In this document: positions 25,600-63,437 of the stretch, piece by piece | How positions within the stretch are numbered: the stretch's first letter is position 1 | Layout: each line of letters starts with the position of its first letter | Assembly (NCBI GenBank): GCA_965644265.1 | Contig: OZ286462.1 | Location: 69,812,001-69,876,000 of the forward strand | From: Glycera tridactyla | Lineage: Eukaryota | Reading direction: 5' to 3' | DNA length: 64,000 nucleotides | Notes under the pieces: generated by a model | What the model was told of the DNA's origin: nothing | Databases searched by the model: none | Seen by the model: only the letters and a program-made list of their open reading frames with translations | Position numbers and translations under genes: made by a program

Positions 25600-25911
25600 A
25601 TGACTCACCTCATGACTCACCTCATGACTCACCTCATGACTCACCTCATGACTCACCTCATGACTCACCTCATGACTCACCTCATGACTCACCTCATGAC
25701 TCATCTCATGACTCACCTCATGACCCACCTCATGACTCACCTCATGACTCATCTCATGACTCACCTCATGACCCACCTCATGACTCACCTCATGACTCAT
25801 CTCATGACTCACCTCATGACCCACCTCATGACTCACCTCATGAATCACCTCATGACTCACCTCATGACTCACCTCATGACTCACCTCGTGACTCACCTCA
25901 TGACTCACCTC
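25600..25911. repeat. 12-bp minisatellite (ATGACTCACCTC) x26
   Basis: 26 units counted; a 48-bp higher-order block of variant units occurs three times. Confidence 0.97.
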
Positions 25912-34236: not shown

Positions 34237-34386
34237 CATCAATTTTTGACCTGAGTTCGACACAATCCCGAGCAGCTTGGAGTTATGAGTTGTTGAACAT
34301 CAACTCCAACACGGAAACCAAGCTCAAGTTGGATGATCATTCACAGAAAATCTCTGTCAATGACAGTTTCCAGCTTGCTACTACAA
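34237..34386 (+). CDS. GRIA: GRIA-like exon 2 (ATD start)
   Basis: TTTCAG acceptor, GTGAGT donor, 150 nt, phase 1/1; SIFDLSSTQSRAAWSYELLNINSNTETKLKLDDHSQKISVNDSFQLATT, matching the iGluR ATD '...DSF...' region. Confidence 0.88.
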
Positions 34387-34938
34387 GTGAGTAAAACATT
34401 ATGTGGGTGAGCTGACGATGCAGACAAACAGACGGACAGGCAGACAGACAGCCTTTTTCCAATGAGAAGATCCTCGATCAGACGTTCGAATGGGCCATCG
34501 CCGAGTCGAACTTTTGCGCCCTCTCTGATATCAACTGAGTAACGCTAGTTCCGCTTTTGCACGTTAGTTGACGCTGCACGTACGCGCCCATGCCTGTCAC
34601 TTTCCTCCCCGGGTCCCTGCGCCGCCGCTTGGGGCGGGTTGGACGCAAGAAAACAGGCGAAGTCACTTTCTGAACAAATGAGTGACACTGCGCTCTTTCG
34701 CAGTGCTGAGCATCCTCTACCGTCGTCACAACGTTTGACTGTTTATTCATTCGACAGTGTATTTCATCTCCTTCAATTTTACTCGAATTTCGATGTAGCT
34801 GATTACATTGAGAGACAAGTGAGGCTCAAAACGTAGGAAAATTACTTAACATTGTCCTGAAAAAGCGTTCCTAAAAGTCGCCTCCATTATTATGAATCGT
34901 ATAGATTGGTGCATCTTTGTATCCTTTTTGGTTTGCAG

Positions 34939-35187
34939 TGTGTTCGTTGATGGCGGGAGGAACATTCGCCATGTTTGGTATACATAGTATGCGGACTTTA
35001 AACACGGTGAAATCATTCACGAACGCCTTCCACATGCCGTATGTGACTCCCAGTATGGCTGTTAACATGACAGGTCAGAATCTGGGCTACATGATCTTCA
35101 TGCGACCCATGTATACCAAGGCCATCACAGATGTCATCAAACATTACAAGTGGAAGAAGATCTACTACCTCTATGATACGGAAGAGG
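34939..35187 (+). CDS. GRIA: GRIA-like exon 3 (ATD)
   Basis: TTGCAG acceptor, G|GTAAGT donor, 249 nt; CSLMAGGTFAMFG...SFTNAFHMPYVTP...MRPMYTKAITDVIKHYKWKKIYYLYDTEEG, typical of the AMPA-receptor ATD. Confidence 0.93.
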
Positions 35188-35210
35188 GTAAGTGCGGTGA
35201 AATGATGCTA

Positions 35211-35388
35211 CAGTCGAACCTGCCCATAAAGACCACCTTCATTTGCATCAAAAAGTGGTCTTTGTAGGCATGTGGTGTTTATAGAGGAGTCATTCACTGT
35301 TGAAAATACCATCATGATTGCAACTCAGGGTGGTCTTTATAGGCAGGTGGTCTTCATAGAGAGGTCGCCCATGGAGCAGGTTCGACTG
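35211..35388. mobile_element. MITE family 1 copy in intron 3
   Basis: TA|CAGTCGAACCTGC ... GCAGGTTCGACTG|TA, 178 bp. Confidence 0.88.
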
Positions 35389-36161
35389 TATTTGATAGGA
35401 AAATGCGCTATTAGCTTGCCGGTTGACTGATCGGATGAGTGGTTGTTTTTTTTTTTATTGATTAATGGGTTGGTTAGCTGTTTGCTTTGGTAATCGATAG
35501 CTGGCTGGTTTGTTGTCTTCTAATATTACGCAAGACCATGCAATGGGCATGGGTGGGATCATTCCGGACTCCTAAAGATGATCCCTGGAGGAAGGTGAAT
35601 TATTAAGAAATTCACAAACACTCAGAGTGCTATCTTCATGGAGTGAATGTTCGAACAAAAATGGCTGACTAGCTGGCTGGTTTACTGACTGGCATTGGAA
35701 GTTGGCTGGCTGTTTGAATGCTTGTCTGTTCGATTGAATGGTTAGTCATTCGACCAGCGGTTTGATTGATTGTCTACTTCATATGTGGATTGCTTGATTG
35801 ATTGACTTACTGATTGATTGATTGACTCACCGCTTGATCGACTAATTGCATGGATGGTCGATTTTGAATGATTGTTTCAATGATTGATCGGTTGACTGAC
35901 CAAAGGACCTTTTTTTTCTTTATTTCGTTATATTAGATTTGGCCCAATCCGTCGTGTGGAGAAAAATCCACCATGGGCTCAATAAACACTGTAGCTATTT
36001 CACAAGTTTGAACGATGTTTTTTATACCCTATCTAATGATAAACGCCTATTGTTACCGGATTAACAATATTCGGGACTTACTGAGCTCTTACTTTTCACA
36101 ACACGATATTTTAATTGTGAGACGGAATCAAATGCTTACATTGCATTTTCCCGGCCTACAG

Positions 36162-36358
36162 GAATGATTCGCCTGCAACAACTGTTTGACTACATGTTAC
36201 TGGAAGACATGGATATCAGAGTGAGTGTATTCCGGGTCAACGGTGCTGATGATGCCTATGAGACACTAATGCAGTTGGATCGGGATTTTGAAGATGGAGA
36301 TAAAAGGGTCATCCTGGATCTGCCAAATAGTGTCAACGAACAGCTGCTGAAAAGTCAG
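36162..36358 (+). CDS. GRIA: GRIA-like exon 4 (ATD)
   Basis: TACAG acceptor, CAG|GTATGT donor; GMIRLQQLFDY...DKRVILDLPNSVNEQLLKSQ; phase 1 to 0. Confidence 0.92.
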
Positions 36359-36982
36359 GTATGTATATCAATGATAATGAATATGATTATTGCTAGATCT
36401 TTTTGGAAAAATATGGTCAGTGTGAAGATTCCTTCCAATGTATCGATACCACTGTAGGGTGGATATCATGCTAATGAAAAGATACCATGTTTTTCCATTC
36501 ACTGAATTATTCTTCTAATTCACTGTCCCTGATATCGACTGAAAATTTGCCTTTTCCTTGATAAACGAAACAGTATTCAACATCAACTCTTAACTGATAT
36601 ATTCAATAATTCTCTTCTCATCTAGTAATATGCCCTTCGCATCATATGATTTTTGTCGGAAATATGAATAGGTCATTCAGGTCTAGGGCAAGACAATCAT
36701 GAATGATATTTTGAGTATCATCATGTTCGTTTCTTACAATTCAGTGTGGTTATCATGGAGGCAATATATATATATATTACAATCATACCATAGCAACACG
36801 CACTACACCTCGTGTATTGTCTTCTAATTATCTACTTGAAATGACCACACTAGTTGGTCATGAACAGGGTGATTGGTTGGTGGATTCATGCGAATGTTTC
36901 TTTCCGTCTCTATTTTTGACTTAATCAGATTTTCATCTTTTTTTTTTTTTGATAGAATTCTCTCTGACCTCATTTTTTTCAG

Positions 36983-37030
36983 CAAACGGACACACGTCGT
37001 GTCAGGTTCCATTACGTGATAGCGGGGCTG
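36983..37030 (+). CDS. GRIA: GRIA-like exon 5 (48-nt small exon, ATD)
   Basis: T-rich TTTCAG acceptor, GTGAGT donor; QTDTRRVRFHYVIAGL, homologous to the GluA 'YHYI.ANL' motif. Confidence 0.85.
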
Positions 37031-37272
37031 GTGAGTAGAAATACCATTAAATGAGATTCCCTGGGACATGTTAACATCATGACCTACGATATGCCATATG
37101 AAATATCTAGAAAATAGACATCAATAGGCGCTCAGACCCTTCTCATTCTCACAATATTCATGAAATTTCAGCTTCGGAGAGGCATATAAGATTCGAGATA
37201 TTCCATGAATTGGCATAGTTTTCATGATCAGATGTATCCATCTCTTCCACCTGGCAACTGGAATGAATGGTA

Positions 37273-37467
37273 CGGACTATCCACTTTACCTAGACAGTCC
37301 TCTGAAGACAACTTCTCTATATAGATGACCTCTCTATAAAGACCACCTTGGGTTGCAACCGTGGTAGTATTTTCAACAGTAGATGACCTATCTATAAAGA
37401 CCACTTACTAATAAAGGCCACTGTTTCTCACGCGACCGAAGGCGGTCTTTATAGAGAGGCTAGACCG
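37273..37467. mobile_element. Diverged MITE family 1 copy in intron 5
   Basis: TA|CGGACTATCC ... GGCTAGACCG|TA imperfect TIRs; internal TATAAAGACCAC repeats and the GCGACCGAAGGCGGTCTTTATAG motif shared with 12772. Confidence 0.72.
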
Positions 37468-37939
37468 TACTTGACGCTACTGGTGCCATCCTGGGGTGTG
37501 ATTATAGTAAGAAATACCGGCGGGGTGTGATCGGCTTGTTTTTCCCACCTTGGTGCGACGACTGCCGCCGGGAATCCCGAGGCCGCCCTATCACACCCTC
37601 AAAATGACATTGGTCGTGAGAGAACATAAGAGTATTTCCTACAGTGAACAACCTCTCTAGAAAGACCGCCTCGCTACAGATGCCATGTTTTATGGTACCA
37701 CGGGTGGTCATTGTAGATAAGTCTGACGGTGGATGCTGGGAGTATATGCTAGTCCCAGGTGGATGACAAGTGAGAAGTGTCGGGGGGGGGGGGGGGGGTG
37801 CAATTTGCCCCATCGTGTACGCTTCACTGGTCACAGACAATGCACGCACGGACCTTGTACCTCGAATGGGGTCAGCCTTACGACTCACGCCGACCGCACT
37901 ACCTCTTCAGAAGTTCATATTCACATGTTTGACTTGTAG

Positions 37940-38101
37940 GGTGTGAGTGAGCTCACTCTGGGTGCGTACGAACACGGCGGTATCAACATGACCGGTTACC
38001 AGCTTGTAGATTTTGACAAAGAATTGGCAAAGACATTTTTTGAACTTTGGTCTCGAATGGATCCAGCAAGTTATGAAGGTGCCGGAGGCCGCAAGATCTC
38101 G
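37940..38101 (+). CDS. GRIA: GRIA-like exon 6 (ATD)
   Basis: TTGTAG acceptor, GTAAGA donor, 162 nt; GVSELTLGAYEHGGINMTGYQLVDFD...WSRMDPASYEGAGGRKIS. Confidence 0.92.
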
Positions 38102-38719
38102 GTAAGATAGAAATGTAACTTAGTGAATGAATGTATGATGTATTTTATGAATGTATGATTATCATATGATATTGAAAGTGCTATGAAAGTTTTATCACAT
38201 GTTTATATTCTATGTACCACCATATTTGTAAAGTGATCCCGATTTCATCACGGCTTCAAAAGTTCCTCGCATATTCTCCATTTTCCTATATTCGATATTG
38301 TGTTACCAGTCTTCACGAAAAATGTCCAGCCACTCTCCCATTGGAAGAGCCGATTGAAAAAAACAGACTCTCGAAAATAAGTTCAGTCTCCCGAACTTGT
38401 GGAAGTTCAAATAGGAACACGACTGAAACGGGCAATTTCGAGAGCAAGATATTTGTTTGATCGAACATCTAATGGAGATGTGAATCCCATCTTATCTCTG
38501 TCTCCTGAGTGACTGCCCTGTCCCACACACCCATTTTTTCTGAAGTTTGTTCTTCAGTGAACTATGTACACATGTATATGCAATAAGGTTTTGCTGTTGG
38601 AGAAATCAAAATTGAAGTGTTCTCTTTTCTCAGTAAATCCACTTTCTCATCAACTGGGAAATTCTGACTCTCCAATTACGATAGTGCGTGATGAAATAAC
38701 TTGTTTGTCAACTAATTTC

Positions 38720-38950
38720 TATTATCCAACATGGGATTCAATGGCTTTGGTCCGAATTCATCCATGGTATTATAGTATACTTCTTCGACTAGTGTACTCG
38801 AATATGTCGAGACAAAAGTTGCAATACCAGGAAGAAAGGAATATGTGTGTATTATGTGTGCAGTGGGATATTTACTGGTGGATGCTATTGTAGATAACAC
38901 AATCTCTTTCAGTATGAAGCCGCTTTAGCAGTGGATGGTATTCGAACGTT
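38720..38950 (+). pseudogene. Diverged tandem duplicate of the intron end, acceptor and first ~12 codons of exon 7
   Basis: 38720-38950 aligns with ~38985-39210. TTTCAG|TATGAAGCCGCTTTAGCAGTGGATGGTATTCGA (YEAALAVDGIR) at 38913 versus TTGCAG|TATGAAGCGGCATTAGCAGTGGATAGTATTCGT at 39171. Confidence 0.8.
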
Positions 38951-39170
38951 CATTCAAAGAATATTTTGTCACACTATTTTCCATTATATTACATGGGAAT
39001 CAAAGACATTAGGTTCATTCATGGTATGATCGTATACTTCCTCGAAAAGTGTACTCGAATATTTGAACACCAAAATCCCAATCATTGGATGTAATGAATA
39101 TATATGTATTATGTGTGTGGTTGAATCTCTATTAGTGAGTGCAATGTATGATACCTGGTGATTTTTGCAG

Positions 39171-39371
39171 TATGAAGCGGCATTAGCAGTGGATAGTATT
39201 CGTATGATTGAGAATGTCATGCACAAGCTTGGGGGTACACGAGGGAAAGTATTCCGGGAGGTGTTGAAGAATGGCAAGTTCTACAATAATAATACGGAAG
39301 GCATCGACTGTGACAGCGAACCTGTCAATCCCTGGAAATATGGACAAGAAATCATGAAGATCATGAAAAAT
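39171..39371 (+). CDS. GRIA: GRIA-like exon 7 (ATD)
   Basis: TTGCAG acceptor, GTAAGT donor, 201 nt; YEAALAVDSIRMIE...IDCDSEPVNPWKYGQEIMKIMKN. Confidence 0.93.
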
Positions 39372-39915
39372 GTAAGTATTGCAGTAAAATAAACGTGGCC
39401 ACATTTTCAAGATTCATAGATTGTTACGAATGCAGAAATGTCCAGATGATTCATTTTCCTAGATGGATGATTTCGTTGGTGTTTTTCACACATTTATTGA
39501 TTTTGGAAATTTATCTGATCTGTGANNNNNNNNNNNNNNNNNNNNNNNNNNNNNNNNNNNNNNNNNNNNNNNNNNNNNNNNNNNNNNNNNNNNNNNNNNN
39601 NNNNNNNNNNNNNNNNNNNNNNNNNNNNNNNNNNNNNNNNNNNNNNNNNNNNNNNNNNNNNNNNNNNNNNNNNNNNNNNNNNNNNNNNNNNNNNNNNNNN
39701 NNNNNNNNNNNNNNNNNNNNNNNNNNNNNNNNNNNNNNNNNNNNNNNNNNNNNNNNNNNNNNNNNNNNNNNNNNNNNNNNNNNNNNNNNNNNNNNNNNNN
39801 NNNNNNNNNNNNNNNNNNNNNNNNNNNNNNNNNNNNNNNNNNNNNNNNNNNNNNNNNNNNNNNNNNNNNNNNNNNNNNNNNNNNNNNNNNNNNNNNNNNN
39901 NNNNNNNNNNNNNNN

Positions 39916-40019
39916 AATTCGATGGATTGTCAGGTCGAGTCGAATTTGATGAGTACGGCCTTAGAAAAGGGTACCATTTAGACGTACTAGAAATCAACTT
40001 TAACCGTGGGATGGCAAAG
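39916..40019 (+). CDS. GRIA: GRIA-like exon 8 (ATD; 5' end hidden in N run)
   Basis: FDGLSGRVEFDEYGLRKGYHLDVLEINFNRGMAK, ending AAG|GTAATT. The acceptor and first bases fall in the N run ending at 39915; expected start is about 39912. Confidence 0.88.
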
Positions 40020-40454
40020 GTAATTCAATCAAATTATTCTGGTGTGGACATTCATAGCTCGAAGTCTGGCTCTTTGTAGGTGGACCTGACAGAATGTACA
40101 TAAGGTTAAAAGTAATGGTATAAGACAATTCACGAAATAAATTGATCTTTGTTTATTAGGAAAGATTGAGATTTCATTTAGGGTATGTAATTCAAGACGG
40201 AATTTGAAACAGGAGATGGCAATAATATCTTGGGAGTAAACTTTCGTGAACAATCTAAAGGCTATTTGGGGGATAACTTGATGACAGTTTATGGCATATG
40301 ATGTTTGATTTTGTTGTATGCTAGACTGAGCATGGCTTTAAGGGCAAGCATGGCTTGAGTGTTTCAGTTCGAGGAGTACGCAAAAATAAGTATATAGTTT
40401 GAGATTTCACCGGCTAGGATAATGATGAATTCTGAACTGTTCCATATTTTTCAG

Positions 40455-40565
40455 ATAGGACGATGGACGTCAGACGATGGCTTAAAGATAGAAAACCCAT
40501 CTCTAGTGCGACCAAAAGGCGACAACCAGATCCTCAACAAGACCCGTATCGTCACGTCCATCCTG
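40455..40565 (+). CDS. GRIA: GRIA-like exon 9 (ATD-S1 linker and first S1 strand)
   Basis: TTTCAG acceptor, GTAGGT donor, 111 nt; IGRWTSDDGLKIE...NKTRIVTSIL (compare GluA 'NKTVVVTTIL'); ends in phase 0. Confidence 0.92.
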
Positions 40566-42749
40566 GTAGGTTGTGTCCATTCATTTGCTCATAACCAGTG
40601 AGTTTCGTGAGAAGTCTCAATAATTCAGGAGTTGACCCATGTTTTAAATCTGACCAGACGCTCATGACATATCCCTCGACATTGAGCAGCTGGACAGTTA
40701 TCAGTCTGACAACAAATATTCTCGAGATTGTCTCGTATTTTGCATGTATAAATTTAGAATCAAGATATTCGACCCCCCCCCCCCCCCTCCCATGAACTTC
40801 ATGATTTCATTGGATTTTAATGAGGTTCAAAATTTCATCTCTTCAGTAACTTCCAACATATATACAGTAAACATCTTTTGTGAGACCGCCCCCCCCCCCC
40901 TATTCCATCAATATGCGGTCACTCCAAAAGGGTGGTCTCTCATTGAAGGTATATTTGACTATATCAGATAGAGAAGAAGTGATGAAAGGCATTCTCTCAA
41001 AAGAGGGCAGTCTCCTAAAAGAGGGGTCTTCGAAAACAGATTCCACTGTACTCACTCATTGTGATACAGTGACCAACGCAAGTAAATGAATGAATGGTTA
41101 TGTCGCCATAAAGATATGTGTTGACAGGTCCTTCCGAAGTGAGACATGATCACATCCACCGATCATGTCTGTTGGTTAGTTCATGTTTCCTATCACTTAG
41201 CCCCACTTTGCACGAACAGTTTGGACAATCACGCAAATTTCTCCAGAAAAAAAGTAAAATTGGCGAACCTCATGATAAAGTAAAGTAAAATTCAGCTTAT
41301 GGCCATCATCGACCCCATTCGTAGCAAACGCTCGTTGTCACCTCGACGTATCCACAAGACTAGGACGACACCGTAATGCTCATGATTTTGAAGTAAAGTC
41401 ATATCAATGAAGATGGGGATGCCCAGGATGGCCGGGAGGCTGCTAGAAACATTTCTACACAGTAACTATCGTGTGTTGAAGCCCTGGCCCAATAAATCAT
41501 AGCAGGAATCTCCACCTGATGTGATCTCAAATATTATATCGCACATGGGAAGGCGCACTAAAACCTCTCATTCTGTACCAGAGGGTATGATACTATCATC
41601 AAGAACACATTAGATAGAATTTCTTCCTTTCATCATACATCGAGCTTCATCAACAAAAATGGTACATTGCCAGATTTCGACGTCCAGCCCATATGGATCA
41701 AATGGATCGTATCCATGGTGACCAAATCCATATCCATGTTGGTAGTTCTAGTGATCTGTGGATATAAGGCAATACTCCAAAGACTTAGCATATCACATAT
41801 TCCGACCCCACCAACTGCTAAGAAAAAAAAATTGCTAATCTTTTCGAGAGCGACATTCTATTCAGTAAGTCATGCCATTGCGCCCCAGCGTGTGCATACA
41901 GCCTTGCAATATGCCCGTTTCTTGTCGAGCTGATGAAATAGACAAGAATAGCTGAGGATCGATTGCGAAGATGTTACATGAATTTTTCACTGCATGATTT
42001 CAACAATGACACGGTGAATATGATGAAATATCACCTGACCTCTCCGCGATCCAGCCCCATAATTCAATGGAGAGACCTTTGAACCTGCCCATCATTGATT
42101 TTCTTTAGCTGTGTAAATGAGTAAGAATAATAGTAGCTTTATATTGGGCATGATTATCATGATGGCTTTCATTGAAGGTGTCCTGCGTGACGTATGCCCT
42201 TCAAGATTGATTAGTGACTCGAGAAATTTTATCATTTCCATGTCTAATAACCATATCGCTAAGAAGAAGTCGCCAAGGTAATCCCTAATCGAAAAGTATA
42301 TACATTCTGTGTGTATTATTATTTCATTATTTGTTAAACTGACGCATGTATCCGTATAGCGCGGACGGAGGCGCTCATATATGTATACTTATATGTACAT
42401 GCATATGTATATGTATGTATATATATATAATATCCATGTGATAACTCGACAGTTTATTTCAGAATCATCACGGTAGGTTGGGCATTTTTGTCACATGGAT
42501 TAATTTTCTTTCAGAGCGCAATCGCAGTAGATGCGGCCATTTTCATGAGGTGCAGTTCATGTTTTATTATAGGATGTACTCAATGTATGAAACGGCTATA
42601 TTCCAATAGTTTGTTAGCTGATGATTCCTGGTAATTTCGACGGACCGACTCACATTCAGTATTATGACCTCAACTATGTCAGTGGAAGTTGCATCAGAGA
42701 AGAAAGTATGTCTAAATTTCATAGCCGTGTGTCACATGTGCCCCATTGG

Positions 42750-44725: not shown

Positions 44726-44944
44726 ACTGAACCTTATCTGATGAAAAAGATGCTAAATACAACCATGGAGGGTGGGCACCCTCCTATTGCAAACCATGTC
44801 TTCGAGGGCTATTGCGCCGATATTGCCAAGAAGGTAGCGGACCTTATCGATATAACTTACATAATAGTGCCCGTCAAAGACGGTGCTTATGGCGGTGAAA
44901 AAAACGGGTCCTGGAACGGGATGGTTGGTGAGCTGGTTAGAAAT
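44726..44944 (+). CDS. GRIA: S1 ligand-binding exon, variant A
   Basis: TTGTAG acceptor, GTAAGT donor, 219 nt; TEPYLMKKMLNTTMEGGHPPIANHVFEGYCADIAKKVADLIDITYIIVPVKDGAYGGEKNGSWNGMVGELVRN. Confidence 0.92.
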
Positions 44945-45454
44945 GTAAGTGTGACAGGGGCGGTGCTGTGGTATAGCACCTCGGCGCTCTCTATACTACT
45001 ACCAACTTCCCGCGCCACGTAGATCTCAAATTAGTGGCTTCGTGTTTTCAACATGCACACGTTCGGATATCTCCGCCCGTCTTCGGGGATTCTTACGGCA
45101 ATGCGCGAAGTTTCACGAAAGGCAACCGGAAATATCCGAACGACTAACGCTACTAATGCAATGAATGTGACACATCCGGACCTCATTAAACTAAAGAAAT
45201 GAAAGCTATAAAGAAGATTTGTAGATAACTAAGCAATACTAACACCTAACTGGCGAAGGTCCACTGGATGTAATCATATTCCTTTCATTCCCATTATATA
45301 TCTATCTATATATCTATATAACATTACTTTATTAAGTAGGAGAATGCTAATACTTTTAACTTTTGAAGCATGTGTGGCGCGGATTGAGCATTTACGGCAT
45401 GATTTGAATTGGACGCGATTTTTTATCTTTGCATTCTGCTTGCTCCTATTACAG

Positions 45455-45673
45455 ACCGAGCCCTACCTCATTCAAAAGCCTAGTAATCAATCGCTGGATG
45501 GCCAACCGCCCATTGGTAATATAAGATACGAAGGCTATTGTTCCGATCTGACTAAGAAAATCGCCGAACTACTCGAAATTGAATACATCATTATACCCGT
45601 TAAAGACGGCAAATACGGTGCGGAGGGTTCCAAGGGAGAGTGGGATGGTATGGTTGGGGAACTGGTCCGCAAC
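45455..45673 (+). CDS. GRIA: S1 ligand-binding exon, variant B
   Basis: TTACAG acceptor, GTAAGT donor, 219 nt; TEPYLIQKPSNQSLDGQPPIGNIRYEGYCSDLTKKIAELLEIEYIIIPVKDGKYGAEGSKGEWDGMVGELVRN. Confidence 0.92.
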
Positions 45674-46315
45674 GTAAGTTCCAGCTATGTGTCTGTGGGC
45701 ACGATGGCTCTTAGGTCCGAATTTGGTGCGCTTTGTCACCCGTGAAATTTGAGTTTGGTTGTTTCTTGTTTGCTTCGGGTGTTCTCGTAAAGTTTTCTTG
45801 CTACGGTGGCTTCAGCTTTAGTGAACAAAAAACACAAAGAATTTTGTGACACCAGGTTCTATCTCACTAAAAGTCACCTTGGTAACAAGCTGAATTTTGT
45901 TGGAGATGACGATCCTTCATCTCAGAATTTGTTTTTGCTTGTTGGCTTTGAATTTTGAGTCTGGACAAAAAAGCACCGCGATTGCAAAACTTCGATTGGC
46001 TAATGTCGGAAATGCCCGAAGTGGAGAGGAGCAGTCGGACTGGGGGTCGGCTCACTAACGTGTAGATACAGTCCAAAATAGGTGGGGTTGTTCACAAATG
46101 CTTTGCGTATCAAACCATAGCAGGTGCAAATACCTACTTCTAATTTGGAATGTAGCTACATGATATTGAACCGAATCCCCGGGCAGTGTCGTTCGTACCA
46201 TGTGTCTAACCTTTGTAGTGGGCATCTCTATATATATCTATTTATATTCACATGTCCCCTAGCACCAGCTAGTCACATCCCATGTTCAATGTTTGCCTTC
46301 TCGTCCAATCTGCAG

Positions 46316-46440
46316 ACAGGAGACCGGCAGGTGGCGACGGAATACAGAGACCCGCCTATGATTCAAGATGGCCAACCTCTAATTTAGCACTGACCTTCGC
46401 GAAATGTAGTACACACTACGGCAAAACAAAAGACGGAATT
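46316..46440 (+). pseudogene. Probable decayed fifth copy of the S1 variable exon (B-like pseudo-exon)
   Basis: Pyrimidine-rich acceptor (TTTGCCTTCTCGTCCAATCTGCAG) and a first codon ACA (Thr), as in all four copies. GATGGCCAACCTCTAATT matches B's GATGGCCAACCGCCCATT at 15/18. Further patches CGAAAT..TACA and AAAGACGG follow in B order. Stop at 46385-46387; no matching donor found. Confidence 0.4.
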
Positions 46441-47876
46441 CCTTTCCATCATTTCAAGACATTATAGCTACAAAAGTACTGATGGGTTGTCTACAAAGAT
46501 ATATACTTTTCGCTAGTATTCCAAACCTTTTCATCATTAAATGATGAATCCATAGCACATCTGTTTCTTCCATTGGCAGAAAAAGTGCTTAACACAGGGC
46601 AAGTGGTATTGGATTTAGGTCATTGATATGAAGTCTTTCTCCCTACATAATGAAACTTCCACACATCGAAAGGATATCTAATATACTATCTGTATTCAAA
46701 TATTCTTTCACTCATTAAATTCACTGTAGAAAGGGGGGAATTGTATGTATTCTACAATATAGGTTAGAATGATAATACACATATATACATATATATATAT
46801 ATATGACATACATAACCCTTATCAGTATATTCTATTCATTACATTCATTGTGATGAGGAAAAGATAATAAAGCATGCACACAATGCATATCACAATATTA
46901 CCCCATCGATTGTATCTGCAATGGGGAGGAGAATATAGATGGAATGGTAAGTATAATGTATTATATACACAAGACATATCCAGAAATTCTTCCATTCTTT
47001 ACATTATTTATGGCGAATATCTTATACTTAAAAGGTATCATGATTCCTTTCATTCATTACATAGATTATGCAGAGGCAGCTACAATATGTTATCATTCTT
47101 TGAGTAATATATTTGTGTGGCATTTCATACATATCGGAGATAACTGAATTGTAAAGAGGTTCGCTGTCGAATTCTAATGTCAGTGCTATATTAGAGGTGT
47201 ATTGTCCTAGGTTCCTCGTCATATGCTGTTGTGTTACCTGAAGCAGTCAAACGTTCGCCACTAACTCACAATCAACTTCTCTACGATAACTCACACAAAT
47301 GTGACTCAATTTCAACTAAGCTTATACGTGTATAACCAACATAAACGGTGACAAAAGAGTGCACAAGATATGCCACCTAGGCGGCTGCTTTATTTTTGGC
47401 TGGCTGCTACACGATCACCCATCACCGGGCAGCGTCCAACTGTTGCTAAGCAGCATGTTGATAATGTTTGTGAATTTGTGATATCTGTGTCGTACTACAC
47501 CCATTTGTTGTCATAGCAACCACCACCTGGCCACACAAGCGTGATGTAGATGCGCGTGAACGAAAGCTGGGAACAAAAATATTGGTTAAGCTAGGTCCGA
47601 CGCGTCTATGAACTATAACTGTAAATATCCTGTGCTTCCAACTGCAAGATAATCAGAAATATATAAGGAATGATGAAGGGTATATTTCGTGTCGCAGGAG
47701 TACCTCATATGGTGTCGGAAAATGTGCCCTTTCCTTTGTTTACTTTCACACCATAGCTCGTATTCGGCGGCTTTCCTGAGTGTCCAGGAGCACGGAAACA
47801 TAATGCACTCATGGTTTCCTACTGACTTTCTTTCGATGAATATATATGGCACGCTGTTTGACATTCCTCCTTGCAG

Positions 47877-48098
47877 ACCGAACCTTACCTGATCCAAAAA
47901 CCCATGAACCTATCTACCCGGGATGGTAATCCGCCTCTTGGTAATGTCAAATTCGAGGGTTATTGTGCGGATCTGGCTAAGAAAATAGCCCAACTGGTTA
48001 CCATCGACTACCTTATTATACCCGTCAAAGATGGTAGCTACGGTGCAGCGGATAAGAACGGTTCTTGGAATGGCATGGTTGGAGAACTTGTTCGAAAT
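47877..48098 (+). CDS. GRIA: S1 ligand-binding exon, variant C
   Basis: TTGCAG acceptor, GTAAGT donor, 222 nt; TEPYLIQKPMNLSTRDGNPPLGNVKFEGYCADLAKKIAQLVTIDYLIIPVKDGSYGAADKNGSWNGMVGELVRN. Confidence 0.92.
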
Positions 48099-51000
48099 GT
48101 AAGTGTGTGAGTGATTGTGGAATTCGGATGGAAGAAGTTAGAGCTGGCCTGTGTGTGTGGCAATACAAAATGGCATCCATCGCATCCGGCAGCAGGGTAA
48201 AACCAGAACACTTCATAGAAATAGGCATGTACATCCATTTTCTGAAATAATACCAGTATAATAGATAGGTGACATGGGGTTCTCCCATAATTGCGCTGCA
48301 AATATTCCAATTGAAATTTCTTCACATATGTTCCTACAGAAGTTAGTTCGTCCCCAGACCTTGAAAGGAATCATGGTTGTGTTGATAAAATGTGATGATG
48401 CCGATTGTGCTGTTTGCATCACCAGGATAATATTAACTATAATTACGTTAAATGCGGGGAGAGGGGGCAGTCGATTCACATGGTAAAAATATCCCTTTTG
48501 AAGTGGAAAAAGAGTGTACATTGAAGGTTCCTCCCTTTTATTCACTTGCTAGATGGCTGTGATTATCATGAAGATTCGCGTTCTAGAAGAAGTGTCCGGG
48601 TTCTTAGAGAGGGTTGGATATCCCATGTCTTATACAAACATACTGTTGTACATAGGTTCTGCAGTCGAGAAAATGGAATATGTCACTTTACGAAAACACG
48701 ATCTAAGATTGGATTGCTCCTGATTGCATTGTGTCGGGATTGGTCCATTAGTAGTGAAATTACCAAGAGAAAATAATATAGCAAGCAATGTCTTGTAAGC
48801 CCTTGAGATAGGAGTTGTTTTGGTTCAACTTGACATGAAACAGGTCTCATCATAGAGAGATCAGAATACCATGTCTTCCCTAGTCAGGACAAAACCGTAG
48901 TTTTCAAAATATAACAACCATACGATAGATAAAGAACTTGAAAGGGTTGAACATTGTTAAGAGGTGGCTTCAGTTCAGGTGGCTTCAGTTCAGGTTTTGC
49001 TTGGTTGCGAGATGTGAATGTTACCAGTTTGTACTTGTCACACATGGCTGGTCTACAAGTGTGAATTCGTCGGTTCAACCAGTGGACTCCTTTTGTAGAA
49101 TGATGTGGTAGTCGCTTTCTCTCCTCTCCCAGTCTTGGTATCACCTCTATCTGGTGCTCTCACATTTACAGATTTAATTCAGCTCTGCTCATCAGGTTCT
49201 CCTGTAATCCCCGAGTGATGGGTTCTATGTATACACACACTCACGATTATATAGATATACATATCTTTGATTAGGAAAACCGAGATTTCTTTGGTTACTT
49301 GTCCGATATTTATTTCATTATTATCACCAAGTAGTCGTCCATTTGATTGATTTCAGTCATATATCATTTTGCGACAGACTTTAGATTATTTGCCATCGAT
49401 AATCGGACCTAAACTTTCTGGTCATTCAATTGTAATCTTATATATGGCAACTGTAGAAACACTATTCATTTCACTCAACACATATGTGCTTGGTCATATC
49501 ACATGAGGGCCATATTAGATGCGCTCATCAATACTTATCCAGGACGTTTTGACTCCTGAAGATATTTCGATGAATCAAAACTCATTTGACACAGCAGCAG
49601 ATCATTCATGTTTGTAGCAGATCGCTGGCTCTATATTTCCTACGTTTACAAGGACATTAGCTTCTCTTTCCATTGTTATGATTAGGATTACGACCGTTGT
49701 ATCCTGCTCATCGATATCAACTGACACGTCAGATATACGATATTTCAGTGAGATGCATGGACGCCAATGGAAAATCTTCTATTGTTGAACTGGGTCTGAA
49801 ATAAATCTGCCAATTGATGAGCATTTTCCTAGAATGGTGTGGTGTATATGGGATCGTGACCGATATTGTGACATGCATTTAGTCCTATTTCGACCTTGAT
49901 GAAGTTCTCCTATGAGGGCGGCCTCAATATCTCATAGTTGGTACTACTAATGCAACTGTGCTACTAAGGTGGCGCTGTTCAGATATAACTAATGCAACCA
50001 TTGAAGGTTTCGTATCTGAAAGATTAACTTTTAAGTCCAAGTTGCTCAAATCAAAATTATCCCTGGTGATCATTGCTCCTGGAATTTTTCTTTATTCTAA
50101 TGAGGAGGATGACTCCGTGTATTTTTGTCTCCAGTCACTGACAACCATATATGGTACAGAGCCTCTTACTGCCTGTTTTTGATCCACTAAATTTGAAAGA
50201 ACTTATCAGGAGCTGGAGAAAGAGGTAAGTTGCATGATGAATACTCAAACGAAAGGGGAGCCATGAATGTGGAGACTCATTGCTTTAGACTTTGTCACAG
50301 CATAATATCATGTCAGTGGCTCATAGAAATAGCCTTACAGGAGACACTCTCGATAAATTACCAATGTGGTGGCAGATGTCACCCCTTAACTTATTGTGAT
50401 ACATTCAAAAAATCAAATGATCCCTAACCTGAATGACCCCCCGCCCCAGCCTAGCCACTAGTAGATATTATACAAATGATCCCTCAGCCAAATTACCCGT
50501 TAGCACATCCGAAAACTCAGGTCAGATCAATCAATTGTTACTGTTAGAATTTGAGGTTATATGGAGGGATGGGTCTTGAGGAATTCTCAACTGATGAGTA
50601 GAGGCACTAAGGTTTACCAACGCTAAGTTCCCAGTAGACTGGTGTTGCTTCTTGGACACATATCGATCCAATCTATACCATAGAGTCCACCAGAGAAGTT
50701 TGACTGATCCAGGCAACTGATTTTCTGAGAGATCATTCGATTGATTGATCCAATAAGAATCATCCTGGCTAAGATCAGGATCAGTCTGAGTAATACATGG
50801 ATTATTCCAAGTGATATCATAATTATAAGATAATTATGAGTAAATGCCGGATGATTCCGAGTGATAGCAAGACCATCCCAACTGATATCAGGATCATTCT
50901 TATTCATAGCGTGATCATTCTGAGTGACATGCAGAAAGTGCCATGTAGAAGACATCATCTTGGATGCAAAGCTCATTTGGCAATGACTGAATAACCTGAA

Positions 51001-53030
51001 TTGAATATATCGAATCGTGCCCTTCTTGCTACTGGAAATATGTTCCAGTACACATCGACATTCAACCACTTAGAATTCACCATATCAGTATAATTGGAAT
51101 TACCAGATATCGGCAACATTTCAACATAGTTACAAGAAGTTTTTTCTCTTTTATGAACCAATATTTCGTAATATTAGGTATGCCTACCATCGAACCGCAT
51201 TTGCATGACGTTAGATACCTGCGTCATATCCAGAGACCACTGATGTTAACAGCATTAAACCGATACAATCGATCTCTGACTGATTTTGTCTTATACCAGT
51301 TCAAAGGCACCAAAGCCTTCTGGGGATGAAAGAAATACGAACATTGTTCTCCATGGGAGTGCCTCGCTAAAGGATGTTTCGATCCAAGCTACTAATAACA
51401 TCAGTGTACATAGTTGTAAGTGAAATGAAACCACACTCAATCGATAGAGAACAGAACCAAGATCACTGCCGTCAGTTGTGTGTTTTTCATGAAATGGGAT
51501 CCATACCAGACACATGCCATATAAAATGGTATCGGAATGCTGAGCATTTGAACATAAATAGTCAGTTAGCCTATCATTGTCATAGAAAACACGATGAAGT
51601 GATTTGCATACGTGCCGACCAAGAGATACTGGCATTAGCTCACCACCTGACACACTGGTGAAGGGCAAATAGAAAAAAAGTAATGAATCAAAACAATCTC
51701 GACTTACTCCTACACTTGAGAACGATTGGTGAAGTAAGTGTCATGACGAAGCGTACTCTTTTATCAACATTGAGTTAATCATCTAACACATCAGTGAATC
51801 ATGCGATATTATTCCTATCCTAGGATATAACTGTTGAATTAGGTTACACACATATCTATCATAACACACTAGCAATGATGACCTCAATACATTGGTGATT
51901 CACATGACTTATCTTCACGCTTGAATACAACTGTTGAAGTGAGTTGCACATGTATCGAGTATAGGAGAGTTGAATAAATGGGTTCACCCTTCAGCTATCC
52001 ATGCGACTTTTCCTTGCCCTCTTATACAATTGATGAAGTCAGTTGCATATAAATCAACTAGATGACACTAGCATCAATTTGTTTAACATGCATCCGGTAT
52101 ATCAATGAAATGAGTTACTATCAATGTCGATCAATAGTATGGAAATATGACATCCTATTCGATTTTGAGTGCTTGATGTCTCATGTGACTCATTAACCCC
52201 GAGAAACTGGTCAATTCGAACCCGAAACATTTCATGACCACATATAAATTCGAGGCAGAATGCACCACAGTATTCCCACATATTGCACGTAAGGCATTGT
52301 TAATGGGCAACGCTATATGCTTTTTTGACCATTTCCTATTTCCTCATGATAATGATTGATATTCTATGATATTGATACATCCCGAGTACGCCCGAAATCA
52401 TCCTGTGAACAAAATATTGCCAATTATTGGGGGCAACGATGAACGGTCGTTCGAGAGACCCATTGCTTTGATCCCAGCTTCGCTTCATTGTCTGAAATGC
52501 TACATTTTCTTCTTTCGTGGCATGCGGACTTTGGTTTCTGCTGATGCATCGATTCTCCGAATTCCCTCTCTTTTTCTGAGAAGCCTACAAACACAACTTG
52601 GCCAATCTATATCCAGTAACTTTTTTTCATTGGTTTTGCCACAATAACGATCATTCTTTGGTATAAACTCTATTTATCACGGGGCATGTCTTTTTTGCAT
52701 CGCTGCTTTGTCCTGCTTGCTTTCCGTTCTCGGTGAGTTTCCCTTATTTGCACAATTGGGCTCGATTATGAGTGTGGAATACATTTATACAATCCTAACT
52801 CGACTCACTGAGGGAGATGAACATAGAAGGGGTGTGGGTAGTTTTAGGGATATCAACAAGCTGCTATACTGCTAGTGATGAAAGTTCTATAGGCTTCTTG
52901 ATACTAGATGAACATACTGGTACCCGTAGCTTTTCTCAAGACTGCTTACTGGGAATCATTCCCATTTGACTGCTTCCGAGTTATTCATTGATGAGTGAAG
53001 TAGCCTCGTTCATTTTTACCTGGATTTCAG

Positions 53031-53267
53031 ACTGAACCTTTCTTGATGGAACGAAAAGGCTTGCCTGTGAATGGTGAGCCCATGGTTGGGGATGTCCGAT
53101 TTGAAGGCTATTGCGTTGAGCTCAATCGAAAGTTGTCTGAAATGATAAACTTCACATATGTGCTAAGACTTGTGAAAGATGGGAATTATGGTTCCCCTGC
53201 GAAGAATGCTACAGATGTGAACACTACGGATGAATGGAATGGTATGATAGGGGAACTGATCCGTAAT
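53031..53267 (+). CDS. GRIA: S1 ligand-binding exon, variant D
   Basis: TTTCAG acceptor, GTAAGT donor, 237 nt; TEPFLMERKGLPVNGEPMVGDVRFEGYCVELNRKLSEMINFTYVLRLVKDGNYGSPAKNATDVNTTDEWNGMIGELIRN. Confidence 0.92.
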
Positions 53268-56200
53268 GTAAGTCCCTTTTGGACCTGGGTGACTAGTGTG
53301 GTCATGACTTTGGTGTGGCCTGATCTGAGATTGTGTCATACTATGGTATGTCAAGAGGAGGAGTTTGTCTCACGTCTTAGTCATAATCACCTGGGATGTC
53401 CTGGGTCTTTGTCTCCTTGTCTACCTTCTTGGCCTGACAGCTTCAGATGAATCGAACTCCTACTATTTTGCTTTTTATCCTGGATGTTCCTGCATCTCAT
53501 CTTTCTATATATATTTGACAAGAGCCTGAATTACTAGCTAGTCATCACATACGGAATGCCGATCTACCAAGAGAGGCTTCTTTCTCATGTGTATACTAGG
53601 TATAGGGAATCAGAATGAGGAACTAGATGAGGCATGCTGGATCGTTGTATATAGGTTTTGGATGAAGTCTGTTTTTTCCATGTGAGATTGATGTTGCATT
53701 CGTCTCTAATCAACACACGACTCTTGCATATGACTAACTTGCATGCCATATTCAGTATGAAGAAATGCAGGGAGAAAACCGAACTAAAATCAAGTGCCAA
53801 TTGATCAGCTGTGAGGAGTTCCTCCAATTGATGGTGGCGAGGACGACTGCAATAACTATGATGCTGATGCTGAAGANNNNNNNNNNNNNNNNNNNNNNNN
53901 NNNNNNNNNNNNNNNNNNNNNNNNNNNNNNNNNNNNNNNNNNNNNNNNNNNNNNNNNNNNNNNNNNNNNNNNNNNNNNNNNNNNNNNNNNNNNNNNNNNN
54001 NNNNNNNNNNNNNNNNNNNNNNNNNNNNNNNNNNNNNNNNNNNNNNNNNNNNNNNNNNATTGTGATGGTGATGGTGATTTTGATGGTGATGGTGATGGTG
54101 ATGGTGATGTTGTTCTCGAAGGCGAGGGGATGAAGTGACCTGTTGAATGGGATGATGAGAGGCAGGAAGGCCTATGAAGTAGGATGGAGAGAAGGGCTAT
54201 GTTGATGATGAGTGTGGTATGATGAGTGGAAGTAGTAGCTGACGGGGCTAGGGTGATCATGATCACCCTTCGTATCCTGGTCTCAAACTCAGTCTTTTTA
54301 GGGTCGGATATGCCAAGGGAGAAAGACCGAAGACGTAAACAGACGCCTGTTCCTATGCGGATCTGTTCAGATTTATCCCCAGAAGAATACTGTCGCACCG
54401 TCGAGTATCATTCAGTAACATATCCACATTGGACCCCCTGAATGCAAATTATTTTGAAGGAAATGCATCACGAACTGATTGATTCAGGCCTATTTTATGT
54501 GATACCAACGGACAGGGGCACTATTGAGAATACCAATGAGGAATACTATGACGGGATTCATAAAACATCCAGCGCATGATTATCACCCCTCCTTCGACTG
54601 ACGACTTCCTCCCTGAAATCTTATTCACCCTGCTCTGTTTTATGCCCCTTGCGATTTTCTACCTTTTGCCCCATCCCTTCCATCCCCATAGTCTGGCGCG
54701 CTGCATTCTTTTCACCAGCAGCTTCATTTTATGTTACAGTTTCCTCGTATCTTTTTACGATTTGTAACTTTGCAATCTTCAATTTCAGATTGAAACTAGT
54801 ATTTTGTTACGATGCATTCTTAGGAAAGAAAGAAAACAGTTTTGGATGTGGCATACGATTTCTACTGAAACCCTATATAGCTTACCGAATGAGGCTGACA
54901 GGTATAATTGCCTGACATCCTATGTCTCACGCTAAATCGATACTATTTCATGGGATGGTCGATTATTTGTTTCACATTCCATGAGCTCATATTGAGACGC
55001 CAATGAAATGGATATTGGTTGGATCATTCTGGACTCAGAACGAAAGGTGAAAATTTCTGGAATAAACAGACATTCAGCGTGTCATCTCTTTAATTCATGG
55101 GGTAGTCGATTTAAAAGTTTGTGCACTTATCTCAATTGCAATGGTGACTTAATGGGTCCCTCGTGCTGCTATGGCAAGACAACCACTCGCCAGATATCCG
55201 ATAATCTTTCGGAACTGCCAAAATCCTTCCATCATATATGAAAGGCCGTGGAACATGATGATATACTTTTGCAAGCGAGTTTTATGGTTCCGCCTTCGAT
55301 TCGGATGGTAATACCATCCGAATTGCATACCTGTCTATCCCCTTGTAGTATGCAATCCATTTTTCTGTAATGCTTCTGTCATATTTGATGGAATTTTGGC
55401 TGACAAATGGATCACAATCAAGGCAGCCTCCGCGAATTGTGTATTGGATCTCTATCAATAGGAGATTGGGCAAGAGTGTCAGCCATTAGGAATAAGACTG
55501 CATGAGCTGGATATCAGAATTGACGATAGACAACCTGTACACCGTGGCCATGGCTCCGATAGAACTTTTGCAGCCAATGCCAGTCGATTATGTCTTCGAT
55601 AATGACCAATTACGAAAAAAAAAACTTTCTGAACATTCAATAAATTGAGAAAAGAGAAAGTAGTCACAAGATGCACATCTTGGCTATAAAACTGTCCACA
55701 TCATTCAGCTTCCACTGTCCATAATACCATGATTATGTCAAATTTCTTCAGAATTTTTCAATTGTTCTCTCTGGAGAATTGATAAAACGTCTTTAGAGAA
55801 AGTTGCTGAATACATTCATCATATCAAATGGAGCTTTCTGACCCCTGCCTCCTGGTATCATGATGTGAGTTCACTCGACTATGAAAGACGATTTGAACGA
55901 CTGCTGACAAAATATTTTCCTGAGTATTTACACATATTCAAGACTGTCTAGTGAATATTCTGTAAGCATGATGTATCTTTTCAATGTCAGAGTGCTATTT
56001 CAATCAATAGTGCAATGAGTGACTGGCATGAGGGGCAATCTGAAATGGTAAGAAGAAAGTCCATGTGATCAAATCTGGACGGACTGTATCTCAAAAAGAG
56101 GTACATATCGAGTAAGCGATACTTAGCTGGATGATTCTGGAAAATCAGGTCCATGTTATAGAATATGTGATATTCAGTAGTGTCATGCCTTGGGAGGATG

Positions 56201-60806: not shown

Positions 60807-61079
<273 letters not shown>

Positions 61080-61433
61080 TGATGTCATGTCCATTGTTAC
61101 ATTACATACCTGTCGAAGGTGGTGAATTGGGTACACATAGTATATTGTCCTATGATCACTATTGAATCATGTCTCTGTCATATATCCATTCATTCCCTTT
61201 CTTCATTCATTTATTCATTCTGTTATTCATCCGATTAATTATCTATCCATCAGTTCTCGATGGTTCAATCTATTATTCAATTGATTGATTACTTTATCTA
61301 CTTATTCATTCATTTAATCATTCATTGATTTATCTATCTAGCTATTAATTCATCTAATCATTCATATATTTTTCCATTATATATTACAATATATATAGCA
61401 GCTCAGGTACATTATTTTGCATTATCCCTGTAG

Positions 61434-61537
61434 GACAACACAGACGGGCCAACAGTGACGAATAATTTCACGATCTTCAACAGTTTGTGGTTCTCTCTTG
61501 GAGCTTTTATGCAACAGGGTACGGACATCGAACCCAG
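61434..61537 (+). CDS. GRIA: GRIA-like exon (M2 pore loop, Q/R site)
   Basis: TGTAG acceptor, AG|GTAGGT donor; [35 protein letters not shown]. Confidence 0.96.
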
Positions 61538-62089
61538 GTAGGTAGTCATGTTATTGCATATCATCATCACCATAAACCCATGGTGAAGATGGCGATAATG
61601 AAGAATAATATGGTCAACAAGCATTCGCTTGATCTGAAAATCATACTTTTTTTCGGTGTTCAAGTCTGGTCTGGTATCGGAATCTATAGAGAGAACATTC
61701 AGTGATACTTCTTCTAACATGAGCTTTTGACAAAAGTCAGAAATCCTTTAATTAGTTGTTGACTATGATATTAAACATGAATGTATCAGCGCTCTACACA
61801 TGAAAATGACTTTGCATTAGTTGATTACATACAGTACCAGTTGCTTCATCATTCACCACTCCATCTTCGATTGACTGATATTGGATGTAATTTGAGACCC
61901 ATCATATGGTCTAGCCTATATCGCCATCCAGCGAAGAGAACATCTATGGACAAAGAATATCCCCAACTGAACAGAAACCTTGGTGATAAATACCATTAGC
62001 ACTAAACCAACGTATCCTCACACGAGAAATAGTAGCACTCCATGAGCAACATGTCCACATGTCCATATGCGCATCATTCTGTGGGATCA

Positions 62090-62460
62090 TTCTGAATGGT
62101 CCAGCCATTTTTTCATTAGAACCTAACCAATTGTGACCAAGGCCATATGCAGGAATGTTTCCCCCCTATCTTCGCTCCTCCTTGGCAGGTGGTCCGATTT
62201 AGCCTACTCAAGTGCAGAAAGTGGACCTAAAACAACACCATTTCCATATACGTTTACCAGGATAGTTTCAAACACAACATCGCCAGTGGTCCAGCAATTT
62301 TCTATTTAGAGCCTGACTAATTTTGACCTAGGCCATATACGTTTACAAGGATAGTTTCAGGCACAACATCGCCAGTGGTCCAGCCATCGTCTCATTAGAA
62401 CCTAACCAATTTTGATCTAGGTCATATACGTTTACCAGGATAGCTTCAGACATAACAGGA
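62090..62460. repeat. ~89-bp tandem repeat (about 3 units) just upstream of the M3 exon
   Basis: TGGTCCAGC...TAGA.CCT.AC.AATT.TGA.C.AGG.CATATACGTTTAC.AGGATAG.TTCA at 62097, 62287 and 62376; the first unit contains the SINE insertion. Confidence 0.85.
62149..62243 (+). mobile_element. 5'-truncated copy of the same SINE with target-site duplication
   Basis: Matches ~42800-42900; flanked by CCATAT at 62143-62148 and 62244-62249; interrupts an ~89-bp tandem repeat unit. Confidence 0.75.
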
Positions 62461-62481
62461 TTCTGCGTCCTTTTCTTGCAG

Positions 62482-62680
62482 GTCGCTATCTGGTCGGATT
62501 GTGGGTAGTGTGTGGTGGTTCTTTACCCTGATCGTCATCTCATCGTACACGGCTAACTTAGCTGCCTTCTTGACAGCGGAACGTATGCAGAGCGCTATTG
62601 AGTCAGCTGATGATCTCGCTAAACAGACCGAAATCAAATATGGAACTATAGAAGGAGGATCAACCATGGGCTTCTTCAAG
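62482..62680 (+). CDS. GRIA: GRIA-like exon (M3, SYTANLAAF gate, start of S2)
   Basis: TTGCAG acceptor; [66 protein letters not shown]; ends at a non-canonical AAG|GCAAGA donor. Confidence 0.95.
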
Positions 62681-63341
62681 GCAAGACCTATTCATTACTC
62701 ACTTGAGATAGATAACAGGAGTAAAAGGCAGGGGTACTCACAGATAGACAGACAGACAAGCAGACACACGCACACACGCACTCACACATTCAGATGAGCT
62801 GACACATGGGCGGTCGAATGAATAGAGGAATGAAGGAATAGTTAGACGGATTCATATAAATNNNNNNNNNNNNNNNNNNNNNNNNNNNNNNNNNNNNNNN
62901 NNNNNNNNNNNNNNNNNNNNNNNNNNNNNNNNNNNNNNNNNNNNNNNNNNNNNNNNNNNNNNNNNNNNNNNNNNNNNNNNNNNNNNNNNNNNNNNNNNNN
63001 NNNNNNNNNNNNNNNNNNNNNNNNNNNNNNNTTAACAATTGTATGATAATGTTGCTTAGATCTCCACTAAGAAATCACCTCATATATTCCTGATTTCACG
63101 CTAAGGTATATGATAAAATGCATGGTAGGATACTATTCATATGAGTGTCAAGTGCTGATTAATTGGTTGATAACCATTTTCCCCTGTCCTTTCCTTTCAA
63201 GCTTCGAATGCAATGCATATATGTACTTCTATATGCACCCCACACAACACATTAATTACTGCCGTATATCATATGTAAAATCCCATTGAATTTTCTCCTT
63301 GCTTCCATTATTCGACTGATAGTGATCTGGTTTGTGCACAG

Positions 63342-63437
63342 GGCTCATCGATTCAAGTATATCAGCGGATGTGGGCATTCATGAGTTCAGCAGATCCGTC
63401 AGTTTTCGTCAAATCAAATGAAGAGGGAGTTCGTCGG
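63342..63437 (+). CDS. GRIA: GRIA-like exon (S2)
   Basis: CACAG acceptor; [32 protein letters not shown] followed by GTAAG and then an N run. The exon end is uncertain: it may end at CGG|GTAAG or continue as VR into the Ns. Confidence 0.85.

Follow-up and report, generated by a model that had tools for sequence, protein, structure and literature searches.

Four tandem, putatively mutually exclusive copies of the S1 exon in an AMPA-type glutamate receptor gene of Glycera tridactyla

The window analyzed here is a 64,000-nucleotide stretch of the genome of Glycera tridactyla (GCA_965644265.1, contig OZ286462.1, positions 69,812,001 to 69,876,000, forward strand). It carries a glutamate receptor gene of the AMPA clade in which the exon for the beginning of S1, the first segment of the ligand-binding domain (LBD), occurs as four tandem copies, A to D (Table 1). 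These copies are probably mutually exclusive exons, one used per subunit, which would tune the kinetics of the receptor on an unchanged glutamate site; the either/or splicing is suggested by the anatomy of the exons, the selection acting on them, and the fold of the domain to which they contribute.

The array consists of internal exons of one complete AMPA-clade gene and does not represent four genes. A profile search with full-length relatives recovered one set of amino-terminal domain (ATD) exons, a linker exon, the four S1 copies, and a single set of S1b/M1, M2, M3, S2, and M4 exons; the 3′ end of the gene lies at most 2 kb past the window (L001). The domain order ATD-S1-M1-M2-M3-S2-M4 is present together with Y450, the P/T/R contacts, the G-S-T motif, E705, Y732, and SYTANLAAF, and Thr occupies positions 402 and 704 (residue numbers are of the GluA2 type, in part following PMC5766834). 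Two trees of the shared exons, with 27 rows (8 named proteins dropped by a motif filter) and 34 rows (3 dropped) and containing no NMDA, delta, or epsilon rows, both placed the gene among AMPA receptors and split it from kainate-type rows with support of 100/99 (starred). Its product is predicted to carry a fast, glutamate-gated cation current. Among the closest full-length proteins are P0298 (88 to 94% identity) and Ridgeia piscesae KAK2192982.1 (81 to 93%), each compared over three shared exons. The 2.04-Gb genome has three AMPA-type genes, the host gene, g2, and g3, inside 0.7 Mb (G000 C10:69.2-69.9 Mb); g3 shows a single S1 exon.

All four copies are AG/GT flanked, have open frames, and are in phase 0/0. 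Their lengths (219, 219, 222, and 237 nt for A, B, C, and D) are all multiples of three, and the introns between them measure 510, 2,203, and 4,932 nt. The proteins that they encode are pairwise 41 to 69% identical, with blastp-type expect values between copies of 1e-17 to 1e-33, far past chance. The cluster has features expected of mutually exclusive exons, namely, tandem homologous exons of similar length and the same phase with canonical splice sites, which are maintained by selection and conserved in relatives (see below). No fifth S1 copy was found within the window, and an exon-remnant lookalike at 46317-46380 was not recovered by the exon profile. The original prediction had described the motifs around Tyr450, the PF of D, the Y(I/L)I(I/V)PVKDG shared by A to C, and eight N-glycosylation sequons, and all of these are exactly as it listed them. 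Its start for the feature, 44870, falls inside exon A, which begins at 44726. It had also placed an insertion of 5 to 6 residues after the YG of D; the insertion is present, but locally it amounts to 7 to 8 residues relative to A to C, as the loop from YG to W (loop 2) has 6, 7, 7, and 14 residues in A, B, C, and D and 8 in GluA2. The smaller figure corresponds to the net difference in exon length or to the excess of the D loop over that of GluA2.

Table 1. Positions of the S1 exon copies, intronic elements, and shared exons (window coordinates unless a locus is named)
Feature	Coordinates	Strand	Details
S1 copy A	44726..44944	+	73 aa, DGAYGG; Tyr405, Ala449; 6-residue loop 2; sequons NTT + NGS
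S1 copy B	45455..45673	+	73 aa, DGKYGA; Tyr405, Lys449; sequon NQS, none in loop 2
S1 copy C	47877..48098	+	74 aa, DGSYGA; Tyr405, Ser449; sequons NLS + NGS
S1 copy D, last-copy type	53031..53267	+	79 aa, DGNYGS; Phe405, Asn449; 14-residue loop 2; sequons NFT, NAT, NTT
A-B intron, single copy in genome search	44945..45454	+	conserved blocks 45015-45091, 45120-45185, 45257-45454
Predicted A-B intron helices	45030/45157, 45060/45142, 45163-45182/45258-45281	+	
Predicted 31-pair G-U-rich stem 3′ of B	45752..46041	+	45752-45783 with 46011-46041; one sequence
ATD exons, single set	34239..40022	+	profile search; bounds approximate, without first (signal-peptide) exon
Shared upstream exon (ATD-S1 linker)	40455..40565	+	phase 0 end
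Shared downstream exon (remaining S1 with Pro/Thr/Arg contacts, plus M1)	60807..61058	+	phase 0 start
Shared M2 (Gln at Q/R site), M3, and S2 exons with G-S-T motif	61434..63437	+	bounds approximate
Extra S2/M4-type duplicated exons	L028:8837-9550, 12046-12847; L023:4229-4562		

The substitution patterns indicate that the copies are old and held under purifying selection. Between copies, third codon positions are 30 to 48% identical and second positions 72 to 85%. Only the B-C pair could be resolved (dN 0.20, dS 1.39, dN/dS ~0.14), the remaining five pairs being synonymously saturated. Comparison of A with its homolog P0007/L021 (62 of 73 residues identical) gave dN 0.09, dS 0.28, and dN/dS 0.32, and B compared with the B of L021 gave dN/dS 0.17. 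The paralog g2, located 630 kb away, has two S1 copies and is identical to the host gene at 303 of 329 residues in shared exons. Since B is sister to the second of these copies, g2_2 (99/97, starred), the split of A, B, and C is likely older than the duplication that gave rise to the host gene and g2, although gene conversion could also produce this pattern. No D-type copy is shown by g2. Its first S1 copy (L007, G000 C10:69225180-69225398, minus strand) is highly diverged, has Gly449 and a long branch, and matches none of A to D.

S1 arrays are found beyond this gene. We surveyed 85 loci, 78 from a scan of metagenome contigs and 7 further stretches of the same genome, many of which are too short to reveal an array. 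Under a strict rule, at least two full S1 copies occur in four of them: L028, a complete gene, has three copies flanked by the same exons as in the host gene, L023 and L024 have three copies each (the first one partial), and L025 has at least two. The genes with three copies come from three other assemblies. In L021, A followed by B is kept in an independent assembly, the second copy being cut by the contig end. In the shared-exon tree, five array genes group together against eleven genes that are single copy as far as their contigs show (84/81, unstarred), and in each of 200 bootstrap trees the presence of the array maps as a single change. By these trees, the array is old and probably of common origin among the array genes examined. 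A tree of the S1 exon itself (41 rows, 72 columns) united the A, B, and C types, together with P0010, in a starred group (98/92; 98/85, starred, in a separate tree), which bears out the earlier view of A to C as a subgroup younger than D. D pairs with P0136 (100/97), which is known as a segment whose position in a gene is not visible, and D groups with copy 3 of each of L023, L024, and L028 (87/89, unstarred; 86% of bootstrap trees).

The exon tree also contained six types of S1-exon open reading frame (P0011, P0012, P0017, P0022/P0024, P0044, and P0072) in a starred group beside that of A/B/C; these may represent a gene cluster or a larger array from another animal. The array genes L028 and L023 also carry two copies of the S2 exon just upstream of E705, and L028 additionally has two M4-type exons. 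Neither the unmasked window nor g2 showed such duplicates, which are possibly a second and a third alternative cluster. Within the same genome, a kainate-type ionotropic glutamate receptor gene (L013, G000 C11:32738334-32738797, minus strand) has two S1 exon copies separated by an intron of only 62 nt, for which steric exclusion is likely, and an AMPA-like paralog (L018, G000 C47, ~73759150-73759990) has, downstream of an intact S1 exon, two or three degenerate pieces that match the 3′ half of that exon. Three proteins with a doubled S1 (P0279, P0281, and P0285) contain identical copies and look like gene-model artifacts, and P0134, which the profile matched three times, is a copepod protein in which whole domains, rather than the S1 exon, are repeated.

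Comparison with these homologs shows which differences between copies persist. Phe405 is found in all five D-type (last) copies and Tyr405 in all 14 other copies in which the site is visible. Lys449 is absent from the five D-type copies (N, R, Q, Q, and H) and is present in 10 of the 14 others with a visible site, those without it being A, its ortholog, C, and g2_1. The ortholog of A keeps both of its sequons as well as Ala449 and the six-residue loop 2, so that the last two features are shared by 2 of 2 A-type copies. Aligned in this way, the exons form two conserved classes, the copies with Tyr405 and mostly Lys449 and the last copy with Phe405 and no Lys449. The closest homolog of C, P0006 (63 of 74 identical), has Lys449 rather than Ser, and its orthology to C is unsettled in the tree. 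The D-type homolog P0136 has Arg449, a nine-residue loop 2, and NAT alone of the three D sequons. The variant-specific residues of the original prediction are therefore conserved in part: Ala449 with the short loop, PF, and non-Lys449 are kept, whereas Ser449 of C and the insertion and the NFT and NTT sequons of D are not. A loop-2 sequon is present in 124 of 250 homologs, and the loop-1 sequon lies at the same Asn in A, B, and C (19 of 139 homologs) and does not separate those three. As the loop-2 sequon is so common in the family, what stands out is that B has lost it. In 198 of 250 homologous segments, residue 449 is Lys or Arg; PF is found in 36 of 139 homologs, and the LBD of Drosophila GluR1 (5dt6) has Asn at 449, as in D. 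Differences between the copies next to Tyr450 had also been pointed out. Position 449 is indeed the most unexpectedly variable column among the copies, but its P value of 0.047 is the best of 70 and is not significant after 70 tests, and the variation tracks that of the family. On these comparisons, the individual residues are less special than had been proposed. The age and the conservation of the array exceed what the original prediction could discern.

The glutamate site is kept, as had been predicted: Tyr450 is present in all four copies, and the remaining direct contacts (P478/T480/R485, G-S-T, E705, and Y732) lie in single-copy shared exons. In GluA2, residues 449 to 452 make cross-cleft contacts on cleft closure. 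The suggestion that Tyr405 lies near the ligand pocket agrees with PMC3979659, which places Y405 and Y450 near the glutamate pocket and has Y405 also line a side pocket for bulky agonists. In a 2026 study (PMC13648236), upper-lobe residues were not linked to ligand choice and are reported as unlikely to set selectivity. More informative is the GluA2 work of PMC5766834, in which K449 and the loop-2 residues R453, D456, and K458 funnel glutamate. There, the D447A-K449A mutation slowed the rise from 190 to 410 µs, while R453D and a triple mutant had rises of 610 to 730 µs and a deactivation slowed from 1.5 to ~3.6 ms; overall, activation of the 449 and loop-2 mutants was 2- to 4-fold slower and deactivation of the loop-2 mutants ~2.4-fold slower. 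Desensitization was little altered in those mutants. Of the kinetic effects originally proposed, an influence on deactivation thus gains support from GluA2, and one on desensitization is weakened. Because the exons exchange the positions of this funnel (449 and loop 2), kinetic tuning is the best-supported effect, and by analogy with GluA2, the copies likely tune activation and deactivation kinetics rather than ligand identity.

With all four exons in multiples of three and introns of 510 to 4,932 nt, neither frameshift followed by nonsense-mediated decay nor steric hindrance by too short an intron can enforce exclusion in this cluster. The A-B intron folds better than its shuffles (z −4.7 with 100 shuffles and −3.1 with 10; opposite strand, −2.7). 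Three of 14 regions reached a folding z of −3 or lower; the intron 3′ of the upstream shared exon (40569-41078; z −3.2, 10 shuffles) likewise folds better than its shuffles, although it holds a dispersed repeat. The stem 3′ of B scored −2.95 on the sense and −0.27 on the antisense strand. The A-B intron of L021 aligns well with that of the host gene (local score 389), in contrast to the intron preceding A, whose score of 27 is within the range of shuffled sequences (maximum 29). Within the alignment, three blocks chosen post hoc are identical at 316 of 341 positions, compared to 38 of 48 four-fold sites, and identity is higher in predicted helices (189/228) than outside them (205/282; P=0.008). 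In this comparison, as in the next, structures are judged from two sequences each. Among the 114 pairs of 17 predicted helices, 82 are unchanged in L021 and 9 are changed on one side but kept, and a 131-nt insertion sits in the loop of an invariant 11-pair hairpin. L028 and L023 keep a 13-pair stem closing a diverged loop in the intron between copies 2 and 3. The constraint on these introns fits RNA structure, which may have a role in splicing. In other scans, 4 of 122 folding windows of 150 nt fell below z −2.5, and Rfam gave just two subthreshold matches, on an AT repeat. A 90-nt intronic match between the host gene (55007-55089) and g2, considered as a regulatory element, is a dispersed repeat with 40 matches and was discarded.

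Flip/flop is the textbook exon swap by which AMPA receptors are tuned and, to our knowledge, is specific to vertebrates. Like the array, it involves tandem duplicated LBD exons of an AMPA receptor gene that serve as homologous alternatives (PMC8257547 and PMC13520880). It comprises a pair of 115-nt exons that encode the last part of S2, at the dimer interface that governs desensitization, and wrong combinations shift the frame. In the host gene, by contrast, there are four in-frame exons of 219 to 237 nt at the start of S1, which contain Y450 and loops 1 and 2 and are 41 to 69% identical, and one S2-end exon is found in L001. Compared in this way, the S1 array is of separate origin from flip/flop, and the likeness in how they would work lies in the presumed either/or use. 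Mutually exclusive exon clusters under the control of RNA structure are known from Dscam and 14-3-3 xi. Mutually exclusive exons of human ATE1 are reportedly governed by RNA structure, and insect nicotinic acetylcholine receptor alpha6 is said to have tandem mutually exclusive exons. The array resembles the Dscam and 14-3-3 xi type in its tandem homologous exons and in conserved intronic elements that are predicted to pair, but its conserved helices are local to one intron, and a shared docking site was not found. Protostome AMPA receptors (Ridgeia KAK2192982.1, Capitella CAPTEDRAFT_167269, and Drosophila GluR1 5dt6) have the same domain order and ligand contacts and differ in showing one S1 segment each; these records are proteins only. 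Within the open-access literature (subscription papers and supplements being outside its scope), our search revealed no report of S1 exon arrays for ionotropic glutamate receptor genes, and a 2026 survey (PMC13520880) states that splicing has yet to be investigated in the AMPA receptors of invertebrates. According to that survey, several of these receptors are obligate heteromers. Tandem mutually exclusive exons are common as a device.

We propose that the tandem S1 exon copies are spliced singly, so that each subunit would receive one of four upper-lobe surfaces (loop 1, helix B, and residues 446 to 459) around a constant glutamate site. In favor of single use, the closest full-length relatives (P0290, P0297-type records, and P0298) have one S1 segment each. 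Exclusion may be assisted by splicing factors or by RNA structure in the introns, which are invoked because a frameshift or a short intron cannot enforce it. Loss of Lys449 together with a more acidic or longer loop 2 would slow the entry and exit of glutamate, that is, activation and deactivation, by a few fold, and glycans on loops 1 and 2 may adjust folding or partner contacts; B would be the fastest copy and A, C, and D 2- to 3-fold slower, and the ligand is predicted to remain glutamate. A broader scenario is possible but tentative: an ancient annelid splicing switch with conserved intronic RNA folds may swap a Tyr405/Lys449 for a Phe405/non-Lys449 glutamate-funnelling face, may later have expanded to at least four versions, may act as an S1 counterpart of flip/flop that arose independently and adjusts synaptic speed from one cell type to another, and may be repeated in the kainate-type gene of the same genome.

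Several results weigh against exclusive splicing with kinetic tuning. The host gene does not retain E657 and R661, by which the lower lobe of GluA2 takes part in the funnel, so that the GluA2 kinetic result may not transfer to it. Taken as a whole, the A-B intron (394 of 510 identical) is no more conserved than four-fold sites, and of its predicted pairs 15 are broken, 7 gapped, and only 1 altered in both partners. A docking/selector pair shared by all copies was not recovered, either in an all-against-all stem scan of 20 kb, whose 1,889 stems are dominated by chance, or among donor-to-acceptor duplexes, which gave no consistent pattern. The 72-column trees are rough, and the two key nodes (that of the array genes and that of the last copies) are both unstarred. 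No same-species isoform pair swapping the S1 exon was found among 169 full-length relatives. As for the differences between copies, columns with four states number 7 where 7.8 are expected, variation among the copies correlates with the entropy of the family (Spearman 0.69, 64 columns), and the S1 exon diverges fast in single-copy orthologs of mites and ticks as well (61 to 72%, compared to 97% downstream), which implies that much of the copy difference may be neutral.

These last figures, together with the marginal test at position 449, the homologs that lack Ser449, the D insertion, and two of the three D sequons, and the improbable role of the upper lobe in selectivity (PMC13648236), would suit exons that exclude each other but confer nearly the same gating, with the array being kept for regulation (splicing by cell type or stage, partner assembly, or trafficking) and the 449 and sequon differences being mostly drift. 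We regard this as rather unlikely, since the states typical of each type have endured long divergence (every last copy has PF and lacks Lys449, and both A copies have Ala449 and the short loop) and the saturated copies were retained next to one another. At the other extreme, the copies might strongly alter agonist or antagonist pharmacology or glutamate affinity, for example through Phe405 or the 449-452 cross-cleft surface; the fixation of PF in the last-copy type and the position of Y405 beside the pocket (PMC3979659) speak for it, but all direct contacts are common to the copies, PF recurs across the family, and Drosophila GluR1 shares Asn449 with D, which makes such an effect improbable. 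As every exon preserves the frame when included twice or skipped, it is also conceivable that only one or two copies are used or that several are joined per mRNA, or else that the array is an assembly artifact or a decaying duplication. This is very improbable given the 41 to 69% identity, saturated synonymous sites, and intact frames and splice sites; the order A then B recurs in an independent assembly, and, from the fold, two copies per chain would be expected to duplicate part of one lobe.

Some observations on the window are independent of the array. The shared exons (60807-63437 and L001:39-191) contain odd residues: an Asn in M1 where g2 has Val, an Ala that follows [11 protein letters not shown] where relatives have Val, and Thr-Glu at the LE motif where g2 has Leu-Glu. 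Minisatellites occupy 57327-58538 (41/82-nt units), ~30860-31370 (~52 nt), and ~25570-25770 (12 nt).

If the proposed splicing is true, single-isoform gene models would conceal the array. The in-frame design of the cluster implies that its exclusion mechanism must be an active one, for which candidate RNA elements are now mapped. With its background fixed, the array would amount to a naturally occurring chimera series with four upper lobes, and would directly test the idea that binding kinetics are set by K449 and loop 2 in native receptors.

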